The notes: generated by a model not told the origin, from the letters alone. DNA of 64,000 nucleotides from Scenedesmus sp. PABB004 (GCA_014905635.1 JABVCE010000032.1:62001-126000); one strand, 5' to 3'. Positions 1-62,761 are shown, numbered from the stretch's first letter. Program-made: numbers and translations.

Positions 1-469
1 CGTTGCCCTCGACGACCTCTTCCCCGCGCCTGCAAGAATATTCTTCCTGAAAATTGACACGGAAGGTTGGAGGCACGGCCGCACGCCGCGCCGGTGTTGG
101 CACTGTTCTGACGCCGCCGCTGGCTCCCTCCCGCGCGCAGGGTTTGAGCTTGACGTCTTTGCAGGCGCGGCACGGCTCTTTCAGCAGCGGCGTGTCGACA
201 ACGTGGTCTTTGAGTACACGGCGTTCTGGACCGACCGCGCTGACCAGCAGGCGCTTCTGCCCTTTGTAGAAGCTTTCCAGCCGAGAGCGCTGTACGCGCT
301 CGACCGCACGGGGCCAACGGTGTACGGCCCGCTGGGTCCCCAGGACGTGCGGGGTTTCTGGAAGGCGCACAACGACCGGCACCTGCAAACTGACGTGTAC
401 GCAACGTTCAGCGATGCGGACAGCCGGAAAGTGCGCGCGACGCCTTACACCCAGAGCGTAAACGCTTGA
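1..469 (+). CDS. FkbM-like SAM-dependent methyltransferase A, 3' part (5' end outside window)
   Basis: Exon to 65, GT-AG intron 66-140, exon 141-469 splice to LDDLFP..IFFLKIDTEGFELDVFAG..VVFEY, the FkbM-type KIDxEGxE motif. Confidence 0.8.
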   Translation, partial: VALDDLFPAPARIFFLKIDTEGWRHGRTPRRCWHCSDAAAGSLPRAGFELDVFAGAARLFQQRRVDNVVFEYTAFWTDRADQQALLPFVEAFQPRALYALDRTGPTVYGPLGPQDVRGFWKAHNDRHLQTDVYATFSDADSRKVRATPYTQSVNA

Positions 470-611
470 GCATCATCTTTCTGGTTCCCTGCAGCTCGAG
501 CCACCACCGCCAAGCAGTCGAGGCGCCGGGCGCGGTGGCTGCATCGCGGCGGCAGGCCTCGCCTCTCGCTGCACCAGGAGCGCCGCTGTGCTGGCCAGCA
601 GCCAGCAGCTA

Positions 612-1926
612 TCAGCAGGTGATGAACACGTCCTCCATGCCAAACTGCTCTTCCACAATAAACGCTCTCAACGCAGCGGGCGAGAGGGCAGGCGCGCTGT
701 CGGGATCGCCCACCGTTGTCATTTGCTTGACCCTCTTGATGGTGCACTGGAGCTCCAGCAGCGCCGCAAACGTCTCGTGCGCCGCCGCGCGTGATATGAT
801 GCCGTCGCGCTGCCACGTCACCGGCGCGACCTCGATCAGCAAGTGCCGCACGCGCTTGCTTCGGAGCATGCCCATGGCCGTCTTGAGGACGGACACCTCA
901 AAGCCCTCCGTGTCTGCGACGGGCCCAGGCGCGCCGTCATGAGCGGCTCACGCGGCAAGCAGGGCTTGCTTGCTGCCCGGCCTTCCCTGGCGCACCGATT
1001 TTGATCATGAAGATACTGATGCCGTCAAACACCGCATCCAGCGACACGGGGTGGGTGGTGACGTTGGTGCGCGGCCCCGGCACGGCCGTGGCGTCCAGTC
1101 CCGTCTTGACGCTGAACGAGCCACGACAGAGCGGAGGGACGGCCATGACCATCGGCGTCGGGTCGGCTGCAATGGCCTCGGGGATGATGCCAAACCGGCC
1201 CTCAACGATGGCTCGAATGTGCCCGTTGAGGCAGAGGTTGCGCTGGATTATGTTGATGCACAGCGGCTGGGGCTCGAAAAACACGACCTCGCAACCGTAG
1301 GACGCGGCGAGCACGCCTGGCGGGGAAGGGGGGGGGGGGGGAGATCGTGTGTGTGTATCTGGGGGGGGGCACCACGTGTTCACGAGGGTCGCTGTCGCTG
1401 ATTCTCACCGTAAAACCCCGCATTGGCGCCCGCGTCGACGAACAGCCCGCCGTGGCAGCCCTGCCCGAAAATTCGACTGAACACTGCGTGGACGTGTCGC
1501 TCGCTGTTGACTATCCAGTTCATGATGTCATCAGAGTCCTGTTGGCCGGGGTTCAGCGCAGCGACAGGCGGCGGCGCTGAGCAGCAGCAGCAGCAGGAGC
1601 AGCAGGAGCGGGGCGCCGCTGCCACTCGCGCAGCGCGGCGCGGCCCGCACCTGCGTCAGGTGGATGCGCTCGCCGCCCGGTTCCGAATACAGCAGCGTCT
1701 GGGCCAGCTTGCCCTGCTCAAACAGGCGGGAGCAGTCTGCGCGTGCTGCAAAGCGCTGCGAGAGGCCAGGCTGCGCTGTGACAGCAGACGCCGGCGCCGG
1801 GGCCGCCGCCGAAGCTGACGCCGCGGCACCATGTCCGGCCAGCAGGGCTTGTTCGATGCCGCGCTGGTGGACCGCGATGTGCACAAGCAAACACCCAAAC
1901 ACCGCCGCCAGCACGACCGTGGCAGC
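612..1926 (-). pseudogene. Inverted copy of methyltransferase B lacking its start codon region
   Basis: Near-identical to 5905-7218 including introns; the ATG and first 14 codons (5863-5904) are not copied and no nearby in-frame ATG replaces them. Confidence 0.6.
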
Positions 1927-2078
1927 GGTCGACGCCCAGCTGCTTCGCGGCGGGCGCGCGGTGACAGCGGGTCGCCCCGCGCGCTTGCGGGCCTGGCGCA
2001 GCGAGGTCAGGCCTGCCCCGCACCAGCAGGCTCTCCGTCGCACAGCTTTTACAGTTGAGCCACCCGCCGTGCATTCTC

Positions 2079-2935
2079 TCAGCACGTCGTCCAGCTCGCG
2101 TTGCGCCGGCACTGCTGCGGGCAGTCCCCCTGCGGCAGGTCTATGCCCTGGAACTCGTTGTCGGGCGCGTACACGTTGCCCACAAAGTCCGACGCGCAGC
2201 GCCGGCGCGTGGGGAAGCCGCGGGACTCGGCGGCCCCGTACGCGCCGCAAAAGTGCGACGCGTGCTGCAGCGTGTGGTCCTTGACGTGGGGCCACACCTG
2301 GCTCCCCAGCCAGGTCTGGTCGCTGCCGTGCGCGTACGAGGCGTTGCTCTGCCGGTCAGCGTCGCGCCACGCGCGGATCACGCGCGGGTTGATCAGCCCC
2401 CCCACCGCGCCCCACATGCCGCCCAGGATGGGGACGCTGTGGTAGGGGTGGTCGTTCATGGCGTGGAACAACCTGCCCGACGCGACCCACTCGTCGACCG
2501 CGGCCCGGTCGCGCGGCGTCAGGCGCGCGTCGGCGTCGCGCACGATCACGCGCGTCGCCGACGCGTCCTCGAGCGCGTAGAAGCGCCAGAACATGCCCGC
2601 GATGCCGCGCTGGTTGGACGTGACGCGCACCAGCTCCGCGCCGAGCACGCGCAGCGCGGCGAGCGTGGCCTCGGGCACGCCCTCGCCCGCGTACACACGC
2701 AGCGTCCAGTTGCCCCAGTCCCGGCGCACGAACAGCGCATTCTCCACCACGCCCGCCGTGTAGCGCGGGTTGTCGCCGTAGAGGGCCATGGAGATGAGCT
2801 TGCGCCCCCGCCCCTCGCGCTCCGCCGCCAGCACCGCGGCCGCGACGGCCGGAAAAACAGTCTCGCCCGTGTCCGGCAGCTCCGGCACGACCGCCGGGTG
2901 CTGCGTGCTGCTCGCATCACTGCCGAATGGCTGTG

Positions 2936-2967
<32 letters not shown>

Positions 2968-3218
2968 GTCTGCTGCGTGCCGCCAGCGGCAGCAGCAGCC
3001 GTCTCAGTGCTGTTCGCTCCGCCGCCGCCGAGGTGCAGTGGCGACGCGCCGTGCGCAGCAGCGCACGAGCGCTCCTGCAGTGGCGAGGGCAGGAAGTAGA
3101 GGCCGCATCCCACCGCGCTGAAGAAGAAGACGAGCGCCACGCACGCAAAGCACTGCAGCGCGCGGCGCCCCGCGCCGCTGCCGCCAGCGGCGCCCGCGTC
3201 CGGGGGCGCGCTCATCAT
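2079..3218 (-). CDS. Putative DxD glycosyltransferase, unassigned family, type II membrane, intronless (paralog 1)
   Basis: 379 aa; N-terminal TM, polyQ stem, motifs ISMALYG, GMFWRF, IVRDADARL, DHPYH, ILGGMWG, DQTWL; TGTAA on minus strand at 2049-2053. Confidence 0.7.
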
Positions 3219-3433: not shown

Positions 3434-4417
3434 ATGACCGCCTCAGCCGGCCACCGTGCGCGCCTGCTGCTCGCCCCTGCCGCCGCCGCCTGCCTGCTGT
3501 GCGCGGCCGTCACGCTCGCTCTGCTGGCCTGCGGTGGAAGTGGCGGCAGCGGCCAGCACGCCCACGCAGCCGCGGCGCCGCCTGCTCCACTCCACGCAGC
3601 AGACAGCGGCGCCACGCCCGGGCCACCGCCGGCGGCGCCAGCAGCCGCAGCGCTGCGCCATGCCTCCCTCGTCGTGGCGGTCACGAGCAAGGCGGGCAGC
3701 CACCGGCGGCGGGCCTGGGTCCGGGGCGAGCTGCGGCGCAGCCTCGCGCTGCTCGCGCGGCGCGACCCCGGCGCCGCGGCGGCGGCGGTGGTCGTGTTTG
3801 TCGTCGGCCTGCGCGGCCTGCCGCCCGGCGCGGCGGCCAACCTGAGCGCCGAGCACGCGGCGTCGGGCGACATGCTGCTGCTGCCCGACACGCCCGACGC
3901 CGACGCGCCCGACCCGCCGCCGCCGGGCGCCGACTCGGCGACGTGCCTCAAGGTCGTGCGCGCGGCGGCGTGGGCGGTGGCGCGCTACGAGTTTGCGCAC
4001 TTTGTGCGCCTCGGCGACGACTCGTTCTTCCGCATCGACTACTTCCTGGCCGACGTCGCGCCGGCGCTGCCGCGCGCGCGCCTGCTGCTCGGCTACTGCC
4101 CGCCGTCGCTGCGCTACACCTTCCCGTCGGGCGCCGCGGTGCGCTACTGCTCGGGCATGGGCTTTGTGCTCAGCGCCGACGCGGTCGCCTTCCTGGCGGC
4201 CGCCGCGGGTGAGGACATGCTTGCCATGCCCTGGCCCGAGGACGCGGCGGTGGCGCTCTGGCTGGCCGGCACGCGCGTGGAGACGACGCACGACGAGCGC
4301 TTCCACGACTGGGAGTGGCGGCGCTGCAGCAACCGCAGCATCATCGTGCACAAGCATCGCTACGGCGGCGTCGACGCCGCGGGCGTGATGACCGACTGCT
4401 TCCCCCAGACGCGCTAG
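3434..4417 (+). CDS. GT31 (Galactosyl_T) beta-1,3-galactosyltransferase-like, intronless
   Basis: 327 aa; N-terminal TM; RRAWVR, FVVG, AE..GD, FVRLGDDSF, YCSGMGFVLS, EDAAVALWL motifs; TGTAA at 4461. Confidence 0.85.
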   Translation: MTASAGHRARLLLAPAAAACLLCAAVTLALLACGGSGGSGQHAHAAAAPPAPLHAADSGATPGPPPAAPAAAALRHASLVVAVTSKAGSHRRRAWVRGELRRSLALLARRDPGAAAAAVVVFVVGLRGLPPGAAANLSAEHAASGDMLLLPDTPDADAPDPPPPGADSATCLKVVRAAAWAVARYEFAHFVRLGDDSFFRIDYFLADVAPALPRARLLLGYCPPSLRYTFPSGAAVRYCSGMGFVLSADAVAFLAAAAGEDMLAMPWPEDAAVALWLAGTRVETTHDERFHDWEWRRCSNRSIIVHKHRYGGVDAAGVMTDCFPQTR

Positions 4418-4568: not shown

Positions 4569-5663
4569 TCAGCACGCCGTCCAGCTCGCGTGTCGCCGGC
4601 ACTGGGCCGGGCATTCGCTCTGCGTGAGGTTCATGCCCAGAAACTCGTTTTCACGGACGTAAATGTTGCCCACAAAGTCCTGCATCGACTCGCGCTTGGT
4701 CGGGAAGCCGCGGAACTCACGAGCCCCGTACGCACCGCACTGGAAGGACGCGTGCTGCAGCGTAAAGTTCTTGACGTGCGGCCACAGGCTGCCCGCCAGC
4801 CAGGCCTGGTCGTTGCCCAGCGTGTACGTGGGGCTGTTCTTCGCATCGGCGTCCCGCCACTCGGCGATGATGCGGGGGCTGACGAGCCCGTTCACCGCGC
4901 CCCACATGCCGCCCATGACCGGCGTCGAGTGGTAGGGGTTGTCGTGCAGCGTATGGAAGAACGCGCCCGACGCGACCCACTCGTCCACCGCGGCCCGGTC
5001 GCGCCGGGTCAGCCGCGAGTCGGCGTCGCGGATGATGAAGCGCGATACCGTGCGGTCCTCGAGCACGTAGAAGCGCCAGAACATGCCCGCCGCGCCGCGC
5101 TGGTTGGAGGTGACGCGCACCAGCTCCGCGCCGAGCGCCTGCAGCGCGGTCAGCGTGCCCTCGGGCACGCCGTCGCCGACGTACACGCGCAGCGTCCAGT
5201 TGCCCCAGTCCCGGCGCACGAGCAGCGCGTTGTCGAGCGCGCCGTCCGTGAAGCGGGCCTGGGCGCCGTAGAGGGCCATGGAGATGACGGAGCGCCCCCG
5301 GCCCTCGCGCTCCGCCGCCAGCACCGCGGCCGCGACGCCGGGAAAGACCAACTCCCCGGTGGCCGGCAGCTCCGGCACGACCTGTGGGCGCGGCTGACTG
5401 CTGGCGGCGGCCAGGCTGGCGTTGGCTGCCCGCTGCGCCGCGGCTCGCGGCGCTTGCGGGCACGCCACGGCCAGCTGCCGCTGCTGCTGCTGCTGCTGCT
5501 GCTGGCGGTCCCATCCCCGCAGCAGGGCGGCGGAGGTGAGGGACAGCAGCATGCCAAACGCCACGCAGGCCTGGCACTTCAGGAGCGTGCGGCGCCCCGC
5601 CGCGCCGGTGCCGCCAGCGGCGTCTGGGTGCGCGCACGCGGCGCCCGGTGGTCGCGGCTTCAT
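4569..5663 (-). CDS. Putative DxD glycosyltransferase, unassigned family (paralog 2 of 2079-3218)
   Basis: 364 aa; same motifs (GMFWRF, IIRDADSRL, MGGMWG, DQAWL); alignable to paralog 1 along the whole catalytic region. Confidence 0.7.
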   Translation of the reverse strand: MKPRPPGAACAHPDAAGGTGAAGRRTLLKCQACVAFGMLLSLTSAALLRGWDRQQQQQQQQRQLAVACPQAPRAAAQRAANASLAAASSQPRPQVVPELPATGELVFPGVAAAVLAAEREGRGRSVISMALYGAQARFTDGALDNALLVRRDWGNWTLRVYVGDGVPEGTLTALQALGAELVRVTSNQRGAAGMFWRFYVLEDRTVSRFIIRDADSRLTRRDRAAVDEWVASGAFFHTLHDNPYHSTPVMGGMWGAVNGLVSPRIIAEWRDADAKNSPTYTLGNDQAWLAGSLWPHVKNFTLQHASFQCGAYGAREFRGFPTKRESMQDFVGNIYVRENEFLGMNLTQSECPAQCRRHASWTAC

Positions 5664-5862: not shown

Positions 5863-7218
5863 ATGAAGCCGCGGCCGCAGGGCGCGCCAGGGCGGGCGCC
5901 GACAGCTGCCACGGTCGTGCTGGCGGCGGTGTTTGGGTGTTTGCTTGTGCACATCGCGGTCCACCAGCGCGGCATCGAACAAGCCCTGCTGGCCGGACAT
6001 GGTGCCGCGGCGTCAGCTTCGGCGGCGGCCCCGGCGCCGGCGTCTGCTGTCACAGCGCAGCCTGGCCTCTCGCAGCGCTTTGCAGCACGCGCAGACTGCT
6101 CCCGCCTGTTTGAGCAGGGCAAGCTGGCCCAGACGCTGCTGTATTCGGAACCGGGCGGCGAGCGCATCCACCTGACGCAGGTGCGGGCCGCGCCGCGCTG
6201 CGCGAGTGGCAGCGGCGCCCCGCTCCTGCTGCTCCTGCTGCTGCTGCTGCTCAGCGCCGCCCCCTTTCGCTGCGCTGAACCCCGGCCAACAGGACTCTGA
6301 TGACATCATGAACTGGATAGTCAACAGCGAGCGACACGTCCACGCAGTGTTCAGTCGAGTTTTCGGGCAGGGCTGCCACGGCGGGCTGTTCGTCGACGCG
6401 GGCGCCAATGCGGGGTTTTACGGTGAGAATCAGCGACAGCGACCCTCGTGAACACGTGGTGCCCCCCCCCCCCAGATACACACACACGATCTCCCCCCCC
6501 CCTTCCCCGCCAGGCGTGCTCGCCGCGTCCTACGGTTGCGAGGTCGTGTTTTTCGAGCCCCAGCCGCTGTGCGTCAACATAATCCAGCGCAACCTCTGCC
6601 TCAACGGGCACATTCGAGCCATCGCTGAGGGCCGGTTTGGCATCATCCCCGAGGCCATTGCAGCCGACCCGACGCCGATGGTCATGGCCGTCCCTCCGCT
6701 CTGTCGTGGCTCGTTCAGCGTCAAGACGGGACTGGACGCCACGGCCGTGCCGGGGCCGCGCACCAACGTCACCACCCACCCCGTGTCGCTGGATGCGGTG
6801 TTTGACGGCATCAGTATCTTCATGATCAAAATCGGTGCGCCAGGGAAGGCCGGGCAGCAAGCAAGCCCTGCTTGCCGCGTGAGCCGCTCATGACGGCGCG
6901 CCTGGGCCCGTCGCAGACACGGAGGGCTTTGAGGTGTCCGTCCTCAAGACGGCCATGGGCATGCTCCGAAGCAAGCGCGTGCGGCACTTGCTGATCGAGG
7001 TCGCGCCGGTGACGTGGCAGCGCGACGGCATCATATCACGCGCGGCGGCGCACGAGACGTTTGCGGCGCTGCTGGAGCTCCAGTGCACCATCAAGAGGGT
7101 CAAGCAAATGACAACGGTGGGCGATCCCGACAGCGCGCCTGCCCTCTCGCCCGCTGCGTTGAGAGCGTTTATTGTGGAAGAGCAGTTTGGCATGGAGGAC
7201 GTGTTCATCACCTGCTGA
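5863..7218 (+). CDS. FkbM-like methyltransferase B, type II membrane
   Basis: Exons 5863-6180, 6293-6422, 6514-6834, 6917-7218 (all GT-AG) give FVDAGANAGFYG, FFEPQP, LD, IKIDTEGFE, IEV. Confidence 0.85.
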
Positions 7219-7832
7219 TAGCTGCTGGCTGCTGGCCAGCACAGCGGCGCTCCTGGTGCAGCGAGAGGCGAGGCCTGCCGCCGCGATGCAGCCACCGCGC
7301 CCGGCGCCTCGACTGCTTGGCGGTGGTGGCTCGAGCTGCAGGGAACCAGAAAGATGATGCTCAAGCGTTTACGCTCTGGGTGTGAGGCGTCGCGCGCACT
7401 TTCCGGCTGTCCGCATCACTGAACGTTGCGTACACGTCAGTTTGCAGGTGCCGGTCATTGTGCGCCTTCCAGAAACCCCGCACGTCCTGGGGACCCAGCG
7501 GGCCGTACACCGTTGGCCCCGTGCGGTCGAGCGCGTACAGCGCTCTCGGCTGGAACGCTTCCACAAAGGGCAGAAGCGCCTGCTGGTCAGCGCGGTCGGC
7601 CCAGAACGCCGTGTACTCAAAGACCACGTTGTCGACACGCCGCTGCTGAAAGAGCCGTGCCGTGCCTGCAAAGACGTCAAGCTCAAACCCTGCGCGCGGG
7701 AGGGAGCCAGCGGCGGCGTCAGAACAGCGTCAACACCGGCGCGGCGTGCGGGCGTGCCTCCAACCTTCTGTGTCAGTTTTCAGGAAGAAGAATATTCTGG
7801 CTGGCGCGGGGAAGAGGTCGTCGAGGGCAACG
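5905..7832. repeat. Inverted repeat IR1, right arm
   Basis: Reverse complement of 1-1926. Confidence 0.95.
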
Positions 7833-8258
7833 CTGTCGACAGTTATTGTGCCGCCGCCGCCGCCCGCCTTGGCCGTCTGTCCGGCGGCAGCCGAAAACGT
7901 CAAGCGCGCGTTTGACGCGTTGGTGACGACCTTGTTGACCAGGGTCACGCGCTCGCCGAAGCCGTTGACGTTGATCGACGCCTGGATGAGTGCCGCTTGG
8001 CGAGGCTGAACCTGCGGCACAGGGGGCAAGCGCCGCGGGGCGCTGAACCGCGGGCTTGGCGCCACGCGCGGCAGGCTGAAGCACTGCCTCGAGCTGCCGC
8101 ACCTCGAAGATGTACACGCGGCACCCCGCCGCCACCGCGGCCAGCCCGAAGTCGCCCAGGAACGCGCCCACGTCCACCACGACCGTGTCCGCGTCCTCGG
8201 CACAGCGCCGGGCGAGGTCAAGTTGCACCGCCTGCCGCGCCTTATCGCCCACGGATCT
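7361..8258 (-). CDS. FkbM-like methyltransferase A, second copy; 5' end unclear, possibly truncated or decaying
   Basis: Three exons: VVDVGAFLGDFG..YIFE / VQPRQ..LKTDTE / GFELDV..FEY; KID changed to KTD; in-frame stop just upstream of 8258; no TM exon found. Confidence 0.65.
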
Positions 8259-8633: not shown

Positions 8634-11600
8634 ATGGCGCGGCTCCTGACGCTGGCCCTGGCCTGCCTCCTGGCGGCCTCGGCCGCTCAGGGCGCGCGCG
8701 TCCTGCAGCAGACTGCGGCGCAGTTCAAGTGGGTCCAGTTTGCCCTCTCCTTCAAGGGCACCACCTGCGCCGAGCTCGGCGGCGCGGACTTCATTGACGG
8801 CCTCCGGATCGCTGGGCGCAATGACATGCGCGAGGCCCTCACCACTGCCGGCATCACCGGCTTCAACGTGCGCGCCAGCTCGCGCGACTGCATCGATACG
8901 TCGCTCCCCAGCTTTGCCAAGCTCGCACAGACGCTCATCGTGCTGAGCTACAACGGCACCACCAATCTGGAGGTGCGCAATGCGCTGTGGAACGCGGCGC
9001 GCGAGCGCATCTGCACCGGCGGCTACAACCGGGTCGTGTGGGGCAACGTGGCGGGCTACCTGGGCAACAAGGACGCCCTGGTTGCCTTCAACAGTGAGTG
9101 TTTGGGGAGCGGGACTGCTGCTCGCGGCCTGCACTCGGGCGGGCCACCCTCACCCCCTTCTCGCTCGCAGACGCGTCGCGCCTCAACCCCTCGGGCAACG
9201 CCGGCGCCAACCAGATGCCCTACGTGCCCGCGGCCGGCGGCTGCGGCACGCCGACGCCGAGCCCGAGCCCCGCGCCGACGCCGAGCCCGAGCCCCGCGCC
9301 TGGGCCGAGCCCGAGCCCCGCGCCGACGCCGAGCCCCAGCCCCGCGCCGCCGGCGTCGCCGAGCCCCGCGCCGGAGTCGCCGAGCCCGAGCCCGGAGCCG
9401 GCGAGCCCCAGCCCGGCGCCGACCCCGAGCCCCAGCCCCGCGCCGGTGAGTCGTGTTGCTCTCGAGTGCTGCCTGGAGCGCTCGCCCTCATTTCACGTTG
9501 CTGTGCTCACTCAGCCCGTTGGCTCCCCACGCAGGCGCTCAACTGCTCGGCCATCATCCCTGGCAGCACCAACGTCAACGGCACCTGCGTGTGCGCGGCG
9601 CCCAACACGATCCCAGTGGTCAATGCGGCCGGCAACGTGACGCAGTGCCTCCCCACCACGACCACGAGCTGCCCCACGGGGACCGTGTCTGTCAAGACGA
9701 GCCCCGGCGCCCTCGTCTCATGCCTGTCGGGCGTGACGACCTGCCCCAGCGGCTACCCCTTCTTCCTCGTGAGCGGCACGCCGACGCCCACGCTCCAGGA
9801 GTGCCGCCCGGCGACCACGGCCTGCATCTACAGCGGCTACGGGGTGCCTATCACCAACGGCACCAACCCGAACGTCAACAGCATCAACAACCAGGTCATC
9901 GGGTGCACCACACAGGAGGGCTGCCCGGCGAGCTACCCCGTCGCGTGGCGCGACTGCTCGGGAGCTGCCTGTGCCACGCTCCTGGAGTGCAGGAACAGCC
10001 AGTGCCCCCCCTATGTTCAGGCGTCCGTCACCGCCTTCACTGTGCCCCAGCTGACCACGACCGGCCAGCTGGTGGGCTGCTTCTCGCTGCCCACTCTTGG
10101 TGGCCAGCGGTGGACGTGCCCCGCCACCGCGCCGTACGCGAACTACCCCATCGAGGCCATCTTTGGCACGCTGGCCGCCGACAACACCCTGTCGTGCTCC
10201 GCGCCCGGCACGATCTGCCTCGCATCGTCCGGCACGCCCAACACCCCGCTCACCCTCTTTTCGCCCATTGCGGCGCCGGTGCCCACCGAGTGCAGGAGCG
10301 CGGTGGCGTCGTGCACCGGCGTTGTTGACCGGACTGGCGCGACGTACACCATCCCTGCCTACACGGGCTCGCGCCTGGACGGCTGCGTGATCACCGGCGC
10401 CCAGGCCTGCCCCACGGCCTACCCCTTCACCAGTTTCTCCGCGGGCAACGTCATCCAGCGCTGCGACGCCAACGGCACCGCGCCTGTGTGCAGCGGCACC
10501 ACCCCCGTGCCTGTGATCAACCTGGCCGGCCAGACGGTGGCGTGCACGTCGGCTACTGCCTGCCCGGCGAACTACCCCATCAAGGTCGTCAACAACAACC
10601 AGATCACGGCGTGCCTGCAGACCGGCTCGACCTGCCCCGTCGGCAACGAGTTCATCCTTTGGGGCGGCGCGAGCGTCGTTGCACCCATCAAGTCCTCCAG
10701 CATTCAGGAGTGCTGGCCCACCAACTGGGGCACCTGCAGCGGGTTTGGCAGCTACCCCGCCCCCATCTTCGGCACCGCCGACGCCACTGGCAGCCCCATC
10801 GGCTGCGCTGCGTCGACGGTTGCCAGCGGCAACACGTGCCCTCCCAACCAGCCGTTTGTGATTGCGAGCACCATCGGCGACATCGTGCAGTGCCGTCCCC
10901 TGGGCCTGACCACGTGCCCGGTGGTGCAGATCTCGGGCGTCACCTACAGTGTGCCCGCCTTCAGCATCCCGACGTCTGGCGCGAGCACCCTCGTCGGCTG
11001 CTCTGCCGCCACGGCCACCGTGTGCCCCCTGGCTGCGCCCGTGCGCGTCCGGGCCACGGCCGTCGACAACGGGGCTGTCATCCAGTGCATCACCCGGACG
11101 AGCCGCTGCCCGCTCGGCTACGAGTTCTTCCTGATGTCGTGGACCGCGCCGGCCGCTGGCTCGCCCGTCCTGGAGCAGTGCTCGCCGTACCCGGCCCTGG
11201 GCACCACGGCCTGCACCGTGGCCAGCATTCCTACCCTTCCCGCTGGCTACACCGCGGTGTCGGTCCAGGCCGCAAACGGCGCGCTGCAGGGCTGCACCAC
11301 CCAGACCACCGTCTGCCCCGGCACCGTGGCGGGCACGACCTACTCGTTCTCGTTCGCGGACGCCTCGAACACGCTCGTCGCGTGCCGCCCGCCGCTGTCG
11401 CTGGTGGGGCAGACCTGCTCCGGCGCCACGCAGTTCCCTGCTGCCGCCCCGGTCACCGTGGGCATGACCACCTCGTCGTTCTCGGCCGGCGTGCTGATCG
11501 GGTGCAGCGGCTCCTCCACGTCGTGCCCGGCCGCGACGCCGATCAGGGTCTACACCACGGCCGGCTGGACGTCCGGTGCACCCCTCCCCGTCACCGACTG

Positions 11601-13062
11601 CATCTCCACCTCCACGCCCTGCCCCGCGGCCAGCCCCTTCATCCTGTACGGTGGCGGCTCTGCGTCCACCGCCAGCGTCAGGCAGGCGTGCACGGGTGGG
11701 ATCTCCGGGACGTGCACCGGCGTCGCGACCTCGGGTGCCGACGCGTACGCCGCCAAGGTGTTCGACGCTTCCAACTCGCTGATCGGCTGCGTCACGGCGA
11801 CCAGCACCTGCCCGTCCGGGGCGCCCTTTGTCTACTTCAAGGCAACCCCCGTCAACACCCTGGACGCGTGCGCGCCTTCGGCCCCCGCCGGCGGCTGCGC
11901 GGCGACGGGCGCCGCGGTGCCGCCGCTGCTCGCGTCCGCCACCCTGTCCATCACGACCCAGGCCGGTGCCCTGGTCGGGTGCGCGCCGACGGCCCTCACC
12001 GCCTGCCCCACTGGGCCCTACTCCTACCCCGTGGCGCTGACTGACACCGCTGGCGCCATCAAGCAGTGCGTGGACCGTCCCACCTCTGCTCCTTTCTGCA
12101 ACGTCCTGGGCACCGACAACGTGCAGTACAGCATCCCCATCTCGAGCACCGCAGGCGCCACCTCGGCGGTCTCCGCCGACATTGTCGGTTGCGCGGCTGC
12201 CGGCACGACGTGCCCGACCACCTTCCCCTTCATGGCCATCTCCGCTTCGTACGCCATCGCGCTGTGCAGCCCAGCGTCGTCGACCAAGGACTGCGCCACC
12301 AACGGCGGCGCCTTCACCACAGCGGTGCAGAGCGCGTTCTCCTCGGCTACCCTGCTTGTCAACGTTGTGGGCTGCCTGGACGGTGCTGCCACGTCGTGCC
12401 CGACGACCGCACTGACCAGCGTGACGGCGAGCGTGGGCATCTTCGACGGCACGACCGTCAGCGCCCCACTGGTGGCCTGCCGCCCCAACCCGTCTGCGAC
12501 AACATGTGCCGCTGCAACAGGCTACACCATTTCGATGTACAACCAGGCCGGCACTGCTGCGGCAGGCACCCCCAACATTATTGGCTGCGTGAAGGACGCG
12601 AGCACGCGCTGCCCCTCGGCCACGCCCTTCCCCTGGGTGGCCGGTGCCAACCTTGCTGGCATGGTGATCGACAGCTGCCGCACCGCAGCGGCCGCGTCGA
12701 CGTGCGGCGACACCACGTTTGCCAACGAGCTGTACAGCGGCACAGACCCCACCGTCGTCACGCAGGCTGCGCTGGTGGGTTGCATCAGCACCAACCAGGT
12801 CAACTGCCCCCAGACTGCCAAGCTGGCCCTGGTGACGGGGCCGGGCATCGGTGTGCGCAGCGATGGCCTCGCCCTCAGTGGCACCAACCTGCTCAGGTGC
12901 TACACTGGTGCCGTTGTTTGCTCAGGCGGCTGGCCGCTGACGGGCAATGCAGGGACTGCTGTTGGCACGATTACGGTTGGCTCGCTCCTCTCGTGTTTGA
13001 CCAGTGGTACTGCCGGCACTTGCGTCAACCCCAACCCCTACGCTTCGGCGGCGTGCACTTGA
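8634..13062 (+). CDS. Large secreted Cys/Thr-rich protein with Ser-Pro linker (~1420 aa)
   Basis: Signal peptide [20 protein letters not shown]; exons 8634-9093, 9171-9445 (PSPSPAP repeats), 9535-13062 (degenerate CPxxxP..GC repeats); exon lengths sum to 4263 nt, in frame. Confidence 0.85.
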
Positions 13063-23294: not shown

Positions 23295-23353
<59 letters not shown>

Positions 23354-24036
23354 CGCAGCCCCCGCCGACGCTGCGCTCACTCCGCTGCCGCTGCCGCGCC
23401 GGCCCCCGCAGCCCTTGCCGCGTGCACGAGCGCGCCCACCAACGCCACCGCACTGCCAGCCAACGCGGCGTGGGGCACCTGCACCAACATCAGCAGCGGC
23501 TCGTCCTGCGCCGCCGTGTGCGCGAGCGGCTACACCGCGACTGCCGGCACGTCCAGCGGCGCCCTGTGCACCAACGGTACCTACGCGGCCTCGGTCTCGG
23601 GCAACCTCACCTGCGTGGCAAACCGTGAGCGCGCTGCGCAGGGGGCTGCCCGCGCTGGCGCCGCTCGCGGCACGCTGCCCGCACGCACGCACGCACGCAC
23701 GCACGCCGCAGCCCCCGCCGACGCTGCGCTCACTCCGCTGCCGCTGCCGCGCCGGCCCCCGCAGCCCTTGCCGCGTGCACGAGCGCGCCCACCAACGCCA
23801 CCGCACTGCCAGCCAACGCGGCGTGGGGCACCTGCACCAACATCAGCAGCGGCTCGTCCTGCGCCGCCGTGTGCGCGAGCGGCTACACCGCGACTGCCGG
23901 CACGTCCAGCGGCGCCCTGTGCACCAACGGTACCTACGCGGCCTCGGTCTCGGGCAACCTCACCTGCGTGGCAAACCGTGAGCGTGCTGCGCAGGGGGCT
24001 GCCCGCGCTGGCGCCGCTCGCGGCACGCTGCCCGCC

Positions 24037-24071
<35 letters not shown>

Positions 24072-24747: not shown

Positions 24748-24781
<34 letters not shown>

Positions 24782-25107: not shown

Positions 25108-25158
<51 letters not shown>

Positions 25159-25481: not shown

Positions 25482-25515
<34 letters not shown>

Positions 25516-25841: not shown

Positions 25842-25892
<51 letters not shown>

Positions 25893-55311: not shown

Positions 55312-56942
55312 TCAACTGAGCGCAGAGCTGTTGAGGCGCGCCAGCAGCGACGCCACGGCGGGCGCGTGCGCCGCCATGCTGAGGTCGACGAGCTCATTGT
55401 ACTTGCGGTTCGTGGGGTCTTTGTAGTGCACAACACGCAGCTCGGTGCGCGGATCGGGGTTGTGCTGCGCCCCGCCGCCAGTGATGAGGTGAACGCTGTG
55501 GGCGACACCGGCAGCAAACACGTTGAGCACATTGCGAGGGCGGCATTGCTCGGCCAGACTTCGCACGCATCCCTCACCTCATGTAATTGACGGATTCCGG
55601 CCGCGCGAGCAGCTTGTCGCCGTCGATGCGGCTGGGGCCTGCGGTGAAGGTCGCCAGCTGCAGTCCACCGCCGGCTGCGTCCGCTGCGGCCTGCTGCGTG
55701 GCATTGGCGCTGGAGCCGAGGTACATGCCCTTCACCTGGCGGTTTCGAGGCGGGCAAGCGGGTTGGTGCGTGGCGGCAGCCAGGCGCGCGCGCGCGTGTT
55801 GGCAGCGCGCGCCTGGCGGCCCCGTACACGGCCGCCCGACCTGAAAGGCGCCGAGGTGCTCCATGTGGCTGCGCGCCGCCAGCCACTCGGCGACCGTCGT
55901 GTTTGTGCCGTCCGTGACCTGCAAGTACTCGTCCACGTCGGTCAGCGCGACCCAGCGGGCGCGCCCCCGATGGCGCACGAGGCAGCCGCACTGCTCCGCT
56001 TGCTGGAACGCCCAGCTGCCGGCGAGCTCAGGCGGCCAGTCAAAGTCAACGACCGTGACCAGGCCCGCCTGCACCAGCGGCCGCAGCGCCTCCTCCGCCG
56101 GCCCCGGCGGGTCGTCCACGTAGATGAAAAAGTGTTGCACGCCCTGCAGCGCGTGATATGCCACCCATTCGGGCACCAGGCGCACGGCAGACTGGCGCAC
56201 CATGGTGCAGGCGACGAGGTGCCGGAACGGCGGAGCGCCGGGAGGGTACAGGCAGTACGGCACGCGCTCGTACCGCCGCGTTGCTGTGTTGGCACCGCTG
56301 TCATTGCCGTGAAGCTCGACCCCGATGCTGACGTGCAGCGGCGCCGCTGGGTCGTGCCGTTCCTGGAGCTCCGCCGGCAGCTGGGCGTGGATGATGAACG
56401 TGTGCCCGTGCCCGTCCAGCCCCAGCGAGCGCGCGCGCGCGGTCGTCCCGACCTCGTCAAACGTGATGCTCCATACGCCGTCGCGCACCCACTGGTGCGC
56501 TGGGTTGGGGTGGATCTTGTTGTTCATCACTGCGTAGACCCGGTCCTGGTGCGCGGTGTGGTGGCCAGGGGAGGTTTGTGAGAGCAGCCGCCGCGGCCCG
56601 GGCTGCTCACGGCCGAGCGTGTGCAGGACGCACTTGCGCCACGATGACCTCGCTCAGCCCCGGCCACGCGTCGCGGGGGTCGCGCAGCCCTGCGTTGTAC
56701 TCCCAGAAGCGCCGCCGGCTCACGCGCAGGAAGCCGTCCGCGCACTCGCCGTCGCCGCCGGCACCGGCGGCCGAGCTGCGGGCGCTGATGCTGGCGGCGG
56801 GGGCTTGTGGTGGTGGTGCTGGGGGTGCTTGGGACGCCGGCAGCTCGCTTGACCGCGGGCAAGCCGTGCTGACGATGAGGGCGGCGTAGGCGACGACAGC
56901 AGCGGCCGCGATCGCTGCCAGCACAGCCCCGCTGCGCTTCAT
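55312..56942 (-). CDS. GT92 (DUF23) glycosyltransferase-like, type II membrane
   Basis: 4 exons; LVACTMVR, EWVAYHALQGVQHFFIY, WVALTDVDEYL, VHY motifs. Confidence 0.85.
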
Positions 56943-57112
56943 TTTCGGCCGCCAGGGCCATGCGGGCATCGAACACCGTTCGACAGCTGGAGCTGAACTG
57001 CCGTTGGCGGAAGGGTTGATGCTTGAATAAATGTTATTCTTGATGTTATTTTGGTTTCAAATGCGATTAAAGCGCACCGTCATGTTTTGAGGTGCATTGG
57101 TGCCTGGGGACG

Positions 57113-58405
57113 ATGGCGCGGCGCGCACGGTCAGCGGTCCTCTTGCTCGCGCTCGCTTTCCTGCACGTCGCGCAGCAACAGCAGCTCGCGGCGTATCCCT
57201 TTCATGTCTCGTGCTCGGGGCTCGCGGCCAGCAAGCAGACGTGCCTGTTCAACAACGTTTGCTTCGTGCCCGGCGCCAACGCCAGCCTCACCGTGCTGCT
57301 GCATGGCACCTCGACAGCACAGCACACTGAGCTGGCGCGGCGGCACTTTGAGGGACTGCTCGCGCCGCACTACGGCGGCGGGGTCTGGTTCAACGCCTCC
57401 AATGCACCCGCGCCGGTGCGCTCGGACCCGGATGGACCGACAGTCGACCACGCGGTGACGCTGTTTTGGCGTCCGGACCCCAACAATCAGTACTCGTTCG
57501 GGCACGCCCTCGTCAACGAGGTCTTCTCAATGTTCCTGGTGCTGTCCAACCACTTTGGCGACCACATCCCGCGCCGTCTGCAGGTCGTTTGCGCGAGCAG
57601 CTGGCACCCGGTCCTGCACCACCTTGTGTCAAGCATGATCGCGCACAGAGCGCAGCTGTGGACCGACAAGATGAAGGCGCACGAGCGGGGCGTGTGCTAC
57701 CGCCACGTGCTCGTCGGGGACGGCGGCTACGTCCACGCGTCGCGCGCGTCGCTCACAAACAGCGGTCACCCCCAGGCCGCGCAGTATGCCAGCGGGCCCA
57801 GCTTTTTCAGCAGCCGCAACTGGTGGGCCTTCCGGGCGTACGCCCTGGAGCTGGCGGGCGTCGTCGAGGACAACAGCGCCCACCACACGCGACCGCGTGA
57901 CCTTGTCCTGCTCAATGACAAGCGGCACGGCAGCGAGGCCGACCGGCGGATGATCATGGACATTGAGCAAGTGGCCGCCAACCTCAGCGCGGCGCTGCCG
58001 AGCGCCGAGGTGGCGGCCGTGCGCATTCGCGACCTGGCGTGGCCCGACCAGCTGCGCGTGCTCACGCGTACCAGCGTATTCATAACGACACAGGGCAGCA
58101 GCGCGTTCCGCCTCATCTTCTTGCCCAGGGGCGCCGTGTGCGTCATGGTTGGAGCGCCGGCTGAGCCGGGCTCAGAGTGGGAATCGTTCCACGAGCTGGA
58201 CAAGTGGTTTCCGCTCAGTTGGGTGGAGTTCGTCAAGTATGAAGTGCCTCTCAACGCGACCTGGGCATATGAGCCGTCACCCCTCTCCTGCACGTGGGTC
58301 AACAACACCAACACGAGGGACAGGGGCTGGTGCCTGTACAACGCTAACATCAGGCTGAACGCCAGCCGGTTGCACGGCATAGTTGCCCCGTTCGTGCGTG
58401 CATGA
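57113..58405 (+). CDS. GT61 (DUF563) glycosyltransferase-like, intronless
   Basis: Signal/TM; CLFNNVC, FGHALVN, DQLRVLTRTSVFITTQGSSAFRLIFLPRGA. Confidence 0.75.
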   Translation: MARRARSAVLLLALAFLHVAQQQQLAAYPFHVSCSGLAASKQTCLFNNVCFVPGANASLTVLLHGTSTAQHTELARRHFEGLLAPHYGGGVWFNASNAPAPVRSDPDGPTVDHAVTLFWRPDPNNQYSFGHALVNEVFSMFLVLSNHFGDHIPRRLQVVCASSWHPVLHHLVSSMIAHRAQLWTDKMKAHERGVCYRHVLVGDGGYVHASRASLTNSGHPQAAQYASGPSFFSSRNWWAFRAYALELAGVVEDNSAHHTRPRDLVLLNDKRHGSEADRRMIMDIEQVAANLSAALPSAEVAAVRIRDLAWPDQLRVLTRTSVFITTQGSSAFRLIFLPRGAVCVMVGAPAEPGSEWESFHELDKWFPLSWVEFVKYEVPLNATWAYEPSPLSCTWVNNTNTRDRGWCLYNANIRLNASRLHGIVAPFVRA

Positions 58406-58447: not shown

Positions 58448-60279
58448 GCGAGCAGCTGGCAGCGCTGTGTTTGAGAGCTCCGGCCCCATCACCAACGTGC
58501 TGGTCGTGCCCAGCCGCACGCACGAAACCAACACGGCGTACATCGACTTTGCGCAAGAAGCGTCTGCGCAAAAGGTGCGGCGGGCCGGCCTGCTTGGTGC
58601 GCCGTGCGCAGCTGCAGGTCGGTTGGGCGCGCCCCGGGCAGGGGCCAGACCCACGCGGCCTGACGCGGGCTGGTCGCAGGTGCTGGTGGACTACAAGACG
58701 CGCCCGCTGGTGCTGGGTGCAGTGAGCGTGAGCGTGCTGCCCAAGATTCCCAAGGTCGTGCGCATGAGCATGGTCGCCGCCGGCGCGGGCGGCCGCGGCC
58801 GCGGCGGCGGCGAGTTCAGGCGCTCCGGCTCCGCTGGCGCGTTTGGCGGGCGGGGAGGTGAGCATCCATCCTGGGGCGCTGGGAGGCGCGGGCGCCGGCT
58901 GCGCTGCCGTGGGCGTGCACCGCGCGCACAGCACCACTTGCCTCGTCCACCACGTATGTCTGTGAGGTTAAGTGCTGGGCGACCTGCAAACTGGGCAGCG
59001 CGCTGAGACACTGCACGCAGCTGGGTGGTGGCGCAGGGGGGGGGGGGACTGTGTGGAAACCGGTTGACACAGACACACGCCTGTGTCTGTGGCGCCATGT
59101 TTGTTTGGCCGCACCCCCCTCACCGTGGCGCTGCCGAGCACGCCAAGGCTGTGCTAGCGCGTCTGGACGGAAGCAGTTAGTCATCACGCCCGCGGCGTCG
59201 ACGCCGCCATCGCGGTGCTCGTGCACGATGGTGCTGCGGTTGCTGCAGCGCCGCCACTCCCAGTCTTGGAAGCGCTCGTCGTGCGTCGTCTCCGCGTGCC
59301 GGCCAGCCAGTGCGCCACCGCCGCGTCCTGTGCCAGGGCACCGTCAGCATCATGCCCTCGCCCGCGGCGCCGCCAGGAAGGCGACCGCGTCGGCGCTGGG
59401 CACGATGGAGCCCATACCCGAGCAGTACCGCGGCGCCCGAGGGGAAGGTATAGCGCAGCGACGGCGGGCAGTAGCCGAGCAGCAGGCGCGCGCGCGGCAG
59501 CGCCGGCGCGACGTCGGCCAGGAAGTAGTCGAGACGTAGTCGATATGGAAGAACGAGTCGTCACCGAGGCGCACAAAGTGCGCAAACTCGTAGCGCACCA
59601 CCGTCCACGCCGCCGCGCGCACGACCTTCATCAAGCACGCCGCAGAGTCGGCGCCCGGCGGCGGCGGTGCGCTGTGCGAATGTCGCCGCCGCGTACTCCG
59701 CGCTCAGGTTGGCCGCCGCCGGGCGGCCACCACCTGCGACTGCCCTGCCTTGATGCTGAGCTGCATGGTCACCCGGCTGCTCGCTGTACGAAGTTGGCTG
59801 CTGGCACGCGCGCCCCGAAGCGGCCAGAGCTACAGTAGCTGCAGCGGGCGGTCGGGTTTTCGCCTGGCGAAATAGCTCTGGTTATGACGCTGTTGGTTTC
59901 AACTGCTGGTCTGCCGCCACGCCTGCCGCGTGGCCGTCACGCTCCCGGTGGTCTGTGGTGGAAGCGGCAGCGGACAGCGCGCCCATCCAGCGGCAGTGGC
60001 GACAACAAGATGTTCGGCCACGGCAGAAACACCCGGGCGCTCGCTTGTGCAACAACTTTTGCACTCGCGGCGCTCGGGTTGATCGCGAAGCACAAGCAGC
60101 TAGCCGTTCATAGCGTTGGCTCGGGGCGCAGCGACGCGCCGTGCGAGCGCCACGGGAAGCTGGTGGAACTGCGCTCGCTGCCGCCGTCGCCGCCGCCATC
60201 GCCGCCGGCGCCGAGGCGCGCCCGCCGGCTCGTGGTGAGCATGAGCAGCTTTCCCGGCCGCGCCGAGCTGGCGGTGCCG
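58448..60279. repeat. Inverted repeat IR3, right arm (second copies of the RRM fragment ~58448-59006 and GT31 pseudogene ~59140-59740)
   Basis: Reverse complement of 53321-55150. Confidence 0.95.
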
Positions 60280-61214
60280 ACCGTGTACTCCATCATGTAC
60301 GGGCGGCGCGTGCCGGACGCGTTCTACTTCTGGGTCGCGCTCAACGTCACCCGCCTCGTGCCGGACGGCGAGACGGGCAAAATTCCCGAGCCCGCCGTTG
60401 CTGTGGGGCAGCAGTTCAGCGGCATCGTGCGCGTCGCGGCAGCGCCACACGACTGGGGCCCCGCCACTAAGCTGCTGCCGACGCTGCGGGAGGAGACGGA
60501 TGCCGACACCGTGATCATCACCGTGGACGGTGCGTGCCCTGGGTCCTGCGGCGACAAGGTCTAGGCAGCGAAGAGGAGGCCCCGCAAGCCGCCGCCGCCG
60601 CCACCCTGCAGACGACACGTACTACCACCCCGACACGGTCTTGGACTTGGAGGCGGCCATCTTGGAGCGCCCTGGACACGCAATCGTGCGCAGCTGCGAG
60701 CTGACACACCTGAACGCGTCGCACGACCCTCCCCGGTGGAAGGAGTGGAAGCTGGACGAAGGCCTGTGCGCCGGCTTCATGACGGCGTATGCGAGCGCAG
60801 GTGCGGTGACGCTGACGGCGGCATTTGCAGCTTCCTGGCACCACAGGCCCCTTCCGTCAAACCGCTCCGCCCCCCGCCACAGCGTACCGGCGGGGCTTTT
60901 TCGACGAAGCCGTGTTCGACCAGGACGCGGCGCCGGACGCATGCCGCCATCATGACGACATCTGGTTCAGCGGCCACCTCTGGCTGCGAGGGGTGCCGGT
61001 GTGGATCTTGAAGCCGTTTGAGCACGCGTGGCCGCCGATGTACCACATGCCAAAAAATCGAATGTCCATTTCGGCGCACCCCGACACCAACAAGAAGCAG
61101 GTGGAGTGCCTGGACTACTGGGGATGGCTGCAGGACCAGGCGGTGCGCAAGCGGCTGCGCCGCGGACGCGCGACTTACAAGCAGGCAGGCGGTGAGCCGG
61201 TTCGGAAATCGTAG
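59884..61214 (+). CDS. Putative GT-A fold glycosyltransferase (alternative start at 60010)
   Basis: Exons to 60529, 60612-60800, 60883-61214; VVSMSSFPGR, DWGPATKLLP, IITVDDDTYY, YRRGFF, DDIWFSGHL. Confidence 0.7.
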
Positions 61215-61317
61215 CAAAGTAGTGCACGGCCGTGTCCTCGGCTTCTCCGCTGCGGCCGCAGCAGCCTGTTCGCCGAGGCTGCCCGACAGGAGGGCCCAGA
61301 GCACCGTGCGCTGACGC

Positions 61318-61860
61318 TCACCGTCGTGGCGCAGTCCCCCAGCACGGCCGGAGCGCCTGTGCCGCGGCTGGCTGCCGGCGCCATGGCGGTGAGGCGGCGC
61401 AGCCACTCGTCGCGGTCGCGCACCTTCATGTTGGACGTGATCAAGCTGCCGTACCTGCGGTGGCGCGGCGCTGGGAGGCGGGCGCGGGCTGGCGCGGGTG
61501 CGGCCGCCGCGCACGCGCCGAGCACCTGTAGACCACCATGATCTGGCGCTCGCCCGGCCCGCCGCCGCCGCCCAGCAGCACCTTGTCCTCGCGCAGGCCG
61601 TCAACTGAGGGTGGCGCGGGGGCTGGAAGGCTGGGGGCGCGGCAGGGGGCAGGGGGTGGGGGGGGGGGCACCCGTGCCAGCAGCAGGTACACGCGCAGCG
61701 GCTCGGGTGGCGGTGGCCGGACCGGCGGCGGCGCCGCCGCTTGCTGTGCGCTGGCCCCTGCGCCGCCCACGAGCCGCTGCCGCCAGCTGCTGCTGGGTCC
61801 GTCGTTGAGTGCGCGGCACGCCGCTGCTCCCCTAGCGCGGCTGTGGCGCACGGGCGGCAG
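61318..61860 (-). other. Unidentified spliced gene fragment
   Basis: Exon-like pieces EPLRVYLLL / DGLREDKVLLG..IMVVY / YGSLITSNMKVRDRDEW with intron-like spacers; frames do not join cleanly. Confidence 0.3.
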
Positions 61861-61915
61861 CAGGCCGGCCGCTGCGGCAACCAGGACTGTGGTCGCGGCG
61901 GCGGCGGCCCCTTTT

Positions 61916-62761
61916 TCATGATGGGCATGTTTTCAAATACTCGTGGTCATGCACAACTGGAGAAAGGTCGCCCCGAACGCGACAGAAGCCTTGTTGTCGC
62001 GTGTGCGGCAACCACCTGCCGCGCCCGCTCACGACAATTGAGCGAAACATGGCCGTGGCTTTGCTTTCTGCATGCTTGATGCTGGAAATTTTGGGGTCAA
62101 ATGCAATCGCCGCCGGCCGCACCGCAAAAAAGTCTGTGTTGATGTGGGCAGCGGTGCAGTTTATCTGGTCTGGGCAAGGCGTGTCATTGCAGTCGGCAAA
62201 GATGCCGTCCACATCAGCATTGTGCATCGCTTCCAGCAGCCAAGTGTCATTGCGAATGATGACGTCAGGGTTGAGCCGGATCACCCAGTCAAACCCGTTA
62301 AACCACCCTCTCGCGAGCGCCACATCCAAAGCCAGGATGGCACCTTCCTGGTAGCCTGGGTTGGTGTACTCGTGCAGCGTGACGGTGGTGTTGGGAAACG
62401 TGCGCGCCAGCAGCTCTGCCCTTTCCGAGTAGCCGCAGCCCGTGGAGAAGACGGTCACCTGTGCAACGGAGCGCAGGAGCTTGGACCGCGCGATGGCCCC
62501 CGGCCAGCAGCGCTTCAAGAACTGGACGTGGGAATCCGAGAATTGGGAGGTGACGTAGAGCGCAACGCGAGGGCTGCTGCTTTTTGTGAAGTTGTTGGTA
62601 GTGTTGGTCGCGGGTGATCCGAGCTTCCATGCCGTGACTCTGAAAGACCAGGAAGGCTCTGCGGGAGCCCTGAGAACGTGCCACACCGCAGCCGTTGAGA
62701 GCAAGGCGAATCCGAGCACGACAGCTAAGACCGTCGCCCTTGTGCTGGCGTCCGTGGACAT
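61916..62761 (-). CDS. Putative glycosyltransferase-like type II membrane protein, intronless, lower GC
   Basis: 281 aa; TM; NPGYQEGA, FDWVIRLNPDVII, NTDFFA. Confidence 0.6.
   Translation of the reverse strand: MSTDASTRATVLAVVLGFALLSTAAVWHVLRAPAEPSWSFRVTAWKLGSPATNTTNNFTKSSSPRVALYVTSQFSDSHVQFLKRCWPGAIARSKLLRSVAQVTVFSTGCGYSERAELLARTFPNTTVTLHEYTNPGYQEGAILALDVALARGWFNGFDWVIRLNPDVIIRNDTWLLEAMHNADVDGIFADCNDTPCPDQINCTAAHINTDFFAVRPAAIAFDPKISSIKHAESKATAMFRSIVVSGRGRWLPHTRQQGFCRVRGDLSPVVHDHEYLKTCPS

Follow-up and report, generated by a model that had tools for sequence, protein, structure and literature searches.

Bacterial O-antigen and capsule loci place several unrelated glycosyltransferases (GTs) side by side with a methyltransferase of the FkbM family, and V. 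cholerae RfbT and Rhizobium NoeI are FkbM-type sugar O-methyltransferases. In the chlorovirus PBCV-1, A064R joins GT domains to a sugar methyltransferase domain. Plant activities of comparable families include GT31 hydroxyproline (Hyp)-galactosyltransferases, the GT47 enzymes ExAD/MUR3, GT61 xylosyltransferases, a GT92 galactan synthase and STELLO; to our knowledge, the plant homologs of these GT genes are dispersed and are not paired with methyltransferases. O-methylation of N- and O-glycans is a hallmark trait in green microalgae, and it complicates the production of therapeutic glycoproteins in algae. In this study, we analysed a stretch of 64,000 nucleotides from Scenedesmus sp. PABB004 (GCA_014905635.1 JABVCE010000032.1:62001-126000; hereafter the window, with positions counted from its first letter), which probably represents a eukaryotic nuclear example of the mixed-family glycan gene clusters that are otherwise known mainly from bacteria and large viruses.

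According to the available part of a 2020 review, algal N- and O-glycans, Scenedesmus N-glycans included, are O-methylated, and none of the glycan-methylating enzymes had been characterised in algae (PMC7773692). The accessible text of a 2025 review names no responsible enzyme and never uses the word "methyltransferase" (PMC12507850). Our own non-exhaustive literature search returned no paper on a glycan methyltransferase in Chlamydomonas and no title reporting a GT gene cluster in green algae.

The window is nuclear DNA of a high-GC chlorophycean green alga. Its G+C content runs from 65 to 83%, G+C at third codon positions (GC3) of the coding frames is 0.8-0.93, and introns, poly-Gln runs and microsatellites are present. 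A codon model, for which the clearest open reading frames (ORFs) served as training set, was used to map coding potential, and 251 stop-to-stop ORFs of the window were scanned with Pfam. Three enzyme-rich blocks are present, at 1-8.3, 34.4-39.3 and 50.2-62.8 kb, just where the original prediction, made from the sequence alone, had placed them. Its count of some nine GTs and four methyltransferases, most of them with an anchor, was essentially right: we found nine apparently intact GT genes of eight families, methyltransferase-like genes of four kinds in six copies, and N-terminal hydrophobic anchors in 11 enzymes. The families are indeed unrelated, 12 remaining after each set of duplicates was counted once, with 4 in the 8.3 kb of Block 1 and 5 in the 12.6 kb of Block 3. 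Taken together, the glycan-building genes of Golgi type in the window probably form a real and non-random physical cluster.

A comparative-genomics paper gives 39.8 Mb, 7,092 gene models and 1.3% repeats for the PABB004 assembly (PMC12571836). Extrapolating the 15 GT/methyltransferase genes per 64 kb to 39.8 Mb would yield approximately 9,300 genes, more than all the genes annotated, so the density of the window cannot be that of the genome as a whole. If 1,000 such genes are assumed, the Poisson tail for at least 12 independent families per window is <1e-4 genome-wide. Twelve unrelated families in 64 kb are far beyond chance.

Four of the GT families named in the original prediction scored above their Pfam cut-offs. 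GT47 (exostosin) lies at 34470..35942(-), where ORF 34470-36170 reached 79.4 bits with PF03016 (cut-off 33.4), and its product is anchored. The STELLO-like GT at 50213..52461(-), with a further N-terminal exon up to ~52999, scored 57.8 bits with PF03385 (cut-off 27.8, ORF 50213-52063). GT92 occupies three coding stretches at 55327..56969(-) and has an N-terminal anchor (PF01697, 59 bits against 23, ORF 55577-56653), and the single-exon GT61 gene at 57113..58402(+) codes for a protein with a signal/anchor (PF04577, 32 bits against 27, ORF 57071-58402). The fifth named family, GT31, fell below its threshold. The anchored galactosyltransferase-type protein encoded at 3434..4417(+) scored 19.4 bits with PF01762 (Galactosyl_T; cut-off 23) and gave only a far-sub-threshold low-complexity match in NCBIfam; it may be called GT31-like, a weak assignment by profile score, and not a GT31 member.

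Two anchored tandem paralogs in Block 1, DxD-A at 2082..3218(-) and DxD-B at 4572..5663(-; protein P0002), share 69% identity and could be assigned to no CAZy or Pfam family. The AlphaFold (AF2) model of DxD-A, a gene with GC3 of 0.93, had a mean predicted local distance difference test (pLDDT) score of 92.2 and matched 222 PDB chains at E<=0.001 with Foldseek, headed by glycogenin, TarP and AvpGT; the capsid GT of PBCV-1 was also among its structural matches. Comparison with VIA gave Z 13.3 for heparosan synthase (root-mean-square deviation (rmsd) 3.6, 179 aligned residues), 12.5 for KfiA and SpsA, and Z>=8 for 133 chains. The DxD motif is invariant, D109 and D111 being present in all 48 aligned sequences (the two paralogs plus 46 homologs). 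Judged by the modelled structure, DxD-A and DxD-B are type-II glycosyltransferases of the GT-A fold from an unnamed family.

Another DxD-type GT, with a DDTYY motif and its own transmembrane (TM) anchor, is encoded by three exons at 60010..61214(+); its homologs P0220-P0223 map to 60232-60528, 60611-60799 and 60876-61181 of this gene. The single-exon gene at 61919..62761(-) encodes an anchored type-II protein, probably a nucleotide-sugar transferase. This assignment follows language-model look-alikes (score 0.93), whose clusters include nucleotide-diphospho-sugar transferase names and serve as a lead only; Pfam, NCBIfam and PDB sequence searches found no match for it, and a viral-contig scan no relative. 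PDB sequence searches with DxD-A, the 61919 gene and the first exon of the 60010 gene gave nothing meaningful, PHROGs gave nothing for 7 window proteins, and Pfam at E<=5 nothing for the family-less proteins.

The six methyltransferase-like genes come from four kinds because two pairs sit in an inverted duplication of 98-99% identity (repeat A, arms 34-1937 and 5894-7796), which encloses DxD-A, the GT31-like gene and DxD-B and duplicates MT-1 and MT-2. The profiles firmly support MT-1 as an FkbM member, with 36.6 bits for PF05050 (cut-off 22.7) and 55.7 bits for TIGR01444 (cut-off 37.7), both scored on the near-identical copy inside the public gene model P0001; FkbM in MT-1 was the sole meaningful NCBIfam match among the proteins scanned, and a homolog search with its domain returned just 3 proteins. 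The right-hand copy, MT-1' at 5863..7215(+), is intact, with its own ATG and a TM anchor. The left copy at 615..1923(-), located by tblastn of P0001 (exons ~1752-1651, 1541-1407, 1317-985 and 914-615), has no ATG of its own because the duplication ends at 1937.

MT-2 is cut by the window start, leaving its 3' part at 2..466(+) in the left arm of repeat A; its Methyltransf_21 score of 23.7 bits (cut-off 22.7) comes from a C-terminal fragment that reads through an intron. Its inverted copy in the right arm, MT-2' at 7364..8252(-), has exons with an S-adenosylmethionine (SAM) motif and a KIDTEG-type motif, which gave no match when taken singly, and its N-terminus was not found in the translations. 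MT-3 at 36173..37488(+) is an FkbM-like candidate of several exons with a TM anchor, recognised by its motifs and a sub-cut-off Methyltransf_21 match. MT-4 at 38254..39303(+) is a single-exon type-II protein with a Rossmann-like domain (AF2 model, pLDDT 94.9); the eukaryotic family to which it belongs is large and unnamed, and 1,661 representatives matched at E<=0.001. For this family, a viral-contig scan detected no relative, PDB sequence searches with protein and profile gave nothing meaningful, and comparison of MT-4 with viral predicted structures gave no match at E<=0.001, FkbM entries appearing among the weak rows only. Of the "four different FkbM-like" methyltransferases originally proposed, the four kinds stand and MT-1 is solid; MT-2 and MT-3 are borderline by their FkbM profile scores, and MT-4, Rossmann-like only, may tentatively be regarded as a methyltransferase. 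Among the proteins compared with known families and folds, the DxD proteins match the GT-A fold and MT-1 the FkbM profiles, and MT-4 ties among Rossmann folds.

Several of these genes form tight head-to-head pairs: DxD-A/GT31-like with an ATG-to-ATG gap of 215 nt, DxD-B/MT-1' with 199 nt, GT92/GT61 with 143 nt, and GT47/MT-3. Across the four pairs, the gaps range from 143 to 306 nt when the upstream GT47 ATG is used, and such tight spacing suggests shared promoters.

Within the first 50 residues of the 11 anchored enzymes, Kyte-Doolittle maxima over 19 residues were 1.36-2.64, with GT61 the weakest, and by these hydrophobicity profiles the proteins appear to have type-II Golgi topology. We infer a Golgi location, sugar O-methylation by the methyltransferases and cooperation among the clustered genes. 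Nine type-II-anchored GTs of eight families would add sugars from nucleotide sugars to secretory glycoproteins or wall polymers, and the similarly anchored FkbM-type, SAM-dependent methyltransferases would O-methylate sugars, possibly terminal ones, in the lumen; the region itself grew by recent local duplication, both inverted and tandem. This scheme fits green-algal chemistry, in which N-glycans with O-methylated mannose (in Scenedesmus as well), xylosylated N-glycans and methylated Hyp-arabinosides are known according to the available parts of two reviews (PMC7773692, PMC12507850).

Links between these GT families and methyltransferases are also seen in other genomes. The four homologs found for the 60010 gene in other Scenedesmus (P0220-P0223, 583-622 aa), two of them from Scenedesmus sp. 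NREL 46B-D3, consist of an N-terminal Methyltransf_22 domain (28-41 bits) and a C-terminal GT domain that is 50-68% identical, exon by exon, to 60010-61214. In contrast, the window gene has a TM anchor instead, and the Methyltransf_22-type domain occurs nowhere in the window. Furthermore, P0114, a relative of MT-4, is fused to a GT61 domain.

The DxD family has relatives on at least 588 stretches in IMG/VR, at 31-40% identity. All five loci whose neighbours were scanned were glycan clusters, three of them with FkbM. Using our own hidden Markov model, we found an FkbM-like ORF within 8 kb of the DxD relative in 39 of 79 viral loci. These ORFs numbered 61, of which 45 were sent to Pfam and 16, apparent duplicates from near-identical loci, were left out; 38 of the 45 passed the FkbM cut-off, and one also matched Pfam V_cholerae_RfbT. 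FkbM was consequently counted within 8 kb in 34 of the 79 loci (28 Pfam-confirmed, 6 inferred from duplicate loci), which is a raw frequency, and the FkbM gene abuts the DxD gene in 13 loci. The viral DxD proteins are usually ~217 aa long and lie in glycan clusters on low-GC (0.25-0.37) contigs with PhoH or dUTPase. The GT31-like protein of the window also showed a marginal BLASTP match (E 0.004) to a viral Galactosyl_T neighbour. The DxD GT-A family, for which neither Pfam nor PHROGs has a model, is common to algae, invertebrates and many viruses, and looks like a widespread viral GT family without a name. The two kinds of fusion and the viral neighbourhoods, three independent lines, together support, at the level of gene order and domain architecture, a general cooperation of these GT families with methyltransferases.

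With the viral glycan clusters of IMG/VR, the window shares the unnamed DxD GT-A family, which there lies beside FkbM and other GTs; the link to the capsid-glycosylation genes of PBCV-1 is the structural match of the DxD model to the capsid GT. However, the viral genes are contiguous, intron-less, low in GC, ~217 aa long and accompanied by sugar-nucleotide enzymes, whereas the window genes are spliced, high in GC, type-II anchored and spread over three blocks; judged by length alone, the viral DxD proteins leave no room for the N-terminal extension in which the anchor of the window proteins lies. The original prediction drew a loose analogy to a bacterial capsule or O-antigen locus. The mixed GTs beside FkbM are common to both, but the comparison remains loose because no sugar-nucleotide, flippase, polymerase or transporter genes were seen; Pfam detected no flippase, polymerase, initiating transferase or ABC transporter/export gene among the 251 ORFs. 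Unlike a bacterial-type polysaccharide locus, the window has mixed strands, intervening unrelated genes, no operon and a eukaryotic host. With the Golgi wall and glycoprotein enzymes of plants and green algae, it has in common the same Pfam families and type-II anchor topology. It also resembles eukaryotic metabolic gene clusters in its adjacent non-homologous enzyme genes (at least three), plausibly serving a common process, and in its tandem duplicates; what defines clusters of that kind is a pathway in common together with co-expression.

A number of observations weigh against the interpretation as a glycan gene cluster, some of which concern the identity of its members. The GT31-like alignment at 3434-4417(+) covers only the C-terminal 50 profile positions and does not reach the Pfam cut-off. 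MT-3, scored on the public model P0068, reached 20.9 bits with Methyltransf_21 against a cut-off of 22.7 (E 4.3e-4, profile positions 12-154). MT-4 has no Pfam match and nothing in the PDB at E<=0.001 with Foldseek; VIA placed the FkbM structure 2py6_A at Z 7.1 (rmsd 4.1, 166 residues), in a tie with dehydrogenases and kinases, which scored Z 7.6-6, and hhalign aligned MT-4 neither with MT-1 nor with the Methyltransf_22 protein. Others concern the layout. The gaps between the three blocks measure 26 kb and 11 kb and are filled by unrelated genes, namely P450s (two copies), a NEPRO-like nucleolar-type gene, an LRR gene and a Gln-tRNA synthetase, and RRM genes interrupt the blocks themselves. 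The blocks, originally described as made "almost entirely of enzymes", also contain pseudogene fragments and, in Block 3, two RRM genes. No genes for sugar-nucleotide synthesis or transporters were detected by Pfam among the 251 ORFs. In addition, the Poisson test takes an assumed genome-wide gene count, the viral FkbM frequency is uncorrected for background, and fusion proteins in other organisms demonstrate a general GT-methyltransferase link only, not the cooperation of neighbours in the window. Finally, pseudogene fragments and duplications of 98-100% identity imply that part of the density arose from duplication and not from selection for clustering.

That last point leads to the main competing explanation, that independent Golgi enzymes and lineage-specific genes piled up by local birth and rearrangement in a duplication-prone, fast-evolving region and share no pathway. 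We regard this as a possible but rather unlikely account of the window as a whole. Three inverted duplications (98-100% identity), a direct partial duplication ~13.4 kb apart and 11 tandem units speak for it, as do the dead fragments of GT31, the 60010 gene, the Gln-tRNA synthetase, a P450 and the NEPRO-like gene, the MT-1 copy without a start codon and the unrelated genes between the blocks. However, duplication explains extra copies and not the co-location of 12 unrelated GT/methyltransferase families, several of which are tied to methyltransferases by the fusions and viral neighbourhoods, and the four tight head-to-head pairs suggest shared promoters. A metagenome scan with a single DxD-family protein yielded 4 distant loci (32-36% identity), none of them on an algal contig, and thus no synteny evidence.

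Two further explanations carry much less weight than a native cluster of Golgi-type genes. The window might be the remnant of a glycan island acquired horizontally, from an endogenised giant virus or mobile DNA, and later adapted to the host; DxD relatives are abundant in viral glycan clusters with FkbM, a chlorovirus capsid-glycosylating GT is among the structural matches of the DxD model, and the look-alike clusters of the 61919 gene include Nucleocytoviricota, again as a lead only. We nevertheless consider such an origin very improbable, because the composition is host-like (GC3 of 0.8-0.93 and overall GC match what surrounds these genes in the window), introns and type-II anchors are present, GT47, GT61, GT92 and STELLO are plant-type families, and Pfam found no capsid, polymerase or packaging domain among the 251 ORFs. 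Moreover, the closest DxD relatives are 50-58% identical, against 31-40% for the viral ones, and measure 241-412 aa, against ~217 aa for the viral/bacterial type; this length, together with the MMETSP/EukProt source of two of them, suggests eukaryotes. An assembly or annotation artefact, with mis-assembled arms and an inflated gene count, might be suspected from arms of 1,242 nt at 100% identity and from the clearly over-fused public models P0001 and P0068. Yet repeat A has arms that diverge at 1-2% of positions and whose ends lie in different gene contexts, spacers of 1.5-4 kb show that they are not simple fold-backs, and 12 families remain with each duplicate counted once. Parts of 1934-5446 are also matched, at 90-99% likeness, by short contigs in three metagenome runs, one contig bridging the GT31-like gene and DxD-B at their 3' ends, and an artefact is in our view the least credible of all these explanations.

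A more ambitious version of the cluster interpretation holds that co-regulated Golgi GTs from eight families and FkbM-type O-methyltransferases jointly make a single O-methylated glycan, specific to the lineage, on the secreted Pro-rich/Cys-rich wall proteins encoded next to them, forming a nuclear Golgi counterpart of an O-antigen or viral capsid-glycan locus that contains the long-sought algal glycan O-methyltransferases. We think it unlikely in this complete form. In agreement with the original proposal that the two giant proteins are secreted, both start with a signal peptide; each also has a linker rich in (S/T/A)P or Pro and long repeats that contain Cys. Secreted protein 1, at 8634..13062(+), has a signal peptide, an N-terminal domain, an (S/T/A)P-rich linker at ~9230-9500 and a Thr/Ala/Cys-rich part of ~1,100 aa; apart from a low-complexity match, no Pfam family was found in it. 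Secreted protein 2, at 19181..26516(+), has a signal peptide, ephrin-receptor-like Cys repeats (Ephrin_rec_like, 25.8 bits) and a Pro-rich, extensin-like linker from 20440. Its tail consists of 11 tandem units at 22574-26603 (353-385 nt, 98-100% identity), each with a Cys-containing exon of ~70 aa and an intron whose (CGCA)n microsatellite varies in length, and the exons look as if they evolve in concert. MT-2' stands head-to-head with the gene starting at 8634, the only hint that the secreted proteins are decorated by the neighbouring enzymes.

If the genes are co-regulated, the window would be a rare eukaryotic case of a glycan gene cluster with mixed families. Its practical value is as a shortlist of candidate algal glycan O-methyltransferases, namely three or four type-II-anchored FkbM-like proteins, and the unnamed GT-A family adds to the candidate list for algal glycan enzymes. 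The cluster is hidden in the public annotation, where several member genes were merged into chimeric models. P0001 (577 aa, 615-3218) joins DxD-A to MT-1, and P0068 (1,250 aa, 31790-39303) combines the NEPRO-like gene, an antisense GT47 piece, MT-3, the tRNA-synthetase fragment and MT-4. Since public models are chimeric, the annotated gene number of the genome is probably too low. The GT-methyltransferase fusion of P0001 was rejected as an unlikely true product: the conserved GT domain is shortened in it by its last 72 residues and thereby loses the near-invariant H200 and F216 and the invariant G228. Two metagenome runs from a single study each contain one contig that extends from the 3' end of DxD-A as far as 1934 and continues at 5862 on the opposite strand, the site of the intact MT-1' start codon; the match is weak (side 48, likeness threshold 90). 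These contigs hint at a close relative in which DxD-A is followed, ~115 nt downstream and on the same strand, by an intact MT-1, possibly as a dicistronic pair.

Besides repeat A, inverted duplication B (arms 53321-55130 and 58468-60279, 99-100% identity) encloses GT92 and GT61. Each of its arms comprises an RRM gene and a frameshifted GT31 fragment with non-triplet indels, and the left arm also carries a truncated 5' copy of the 60010 gene. The near-identical RRM genes, at 54595-55311(-) and 58383-59003(+), occupy the inner ends of repeat B and directly adjoin the 3' ends of GT92 and GT61 (left copy, RRM_1 33.1 bits). The arms of a third inverted duplication are at 15336-16168 and 17675-18516, the three together ranging from 98 to 100% identity. 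Spacers in these duplications are 1.5-4 kb long, and every boundary cuts a gene, which left truncated copies. The window is thus a palindrome-rich stretch of a genome that is reported to have only 1.3% repeats (PMC12571836).

Secreted protein 2 is followed downstream by a P450 gene, and secreted protein 1 by a partial duplicate of the 3' half of this gene. The two copies (13554-15274 and 27018-28814, with P450 coding at 14198-15198(-) and 27377-31350(-)) are 75-97% identical and ~13.45 kb apart, and the P450 introns are rich in poly-G tracts. The Gln/Glu-tRNA synthetase gene extends over 45279-49989, with long (GT)n microsatellites in its introns at 47913-48606, and the stretch 37702-37995 between MT-3 and MT-4 is a 97% copy of its last coding part at 49610-49904. 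Low-complexity, coding-looking stretches rich in Ala, Pro and Gly and without a family were observed at 16635-17540(+), 39455-42369(-) and 62803-64000.

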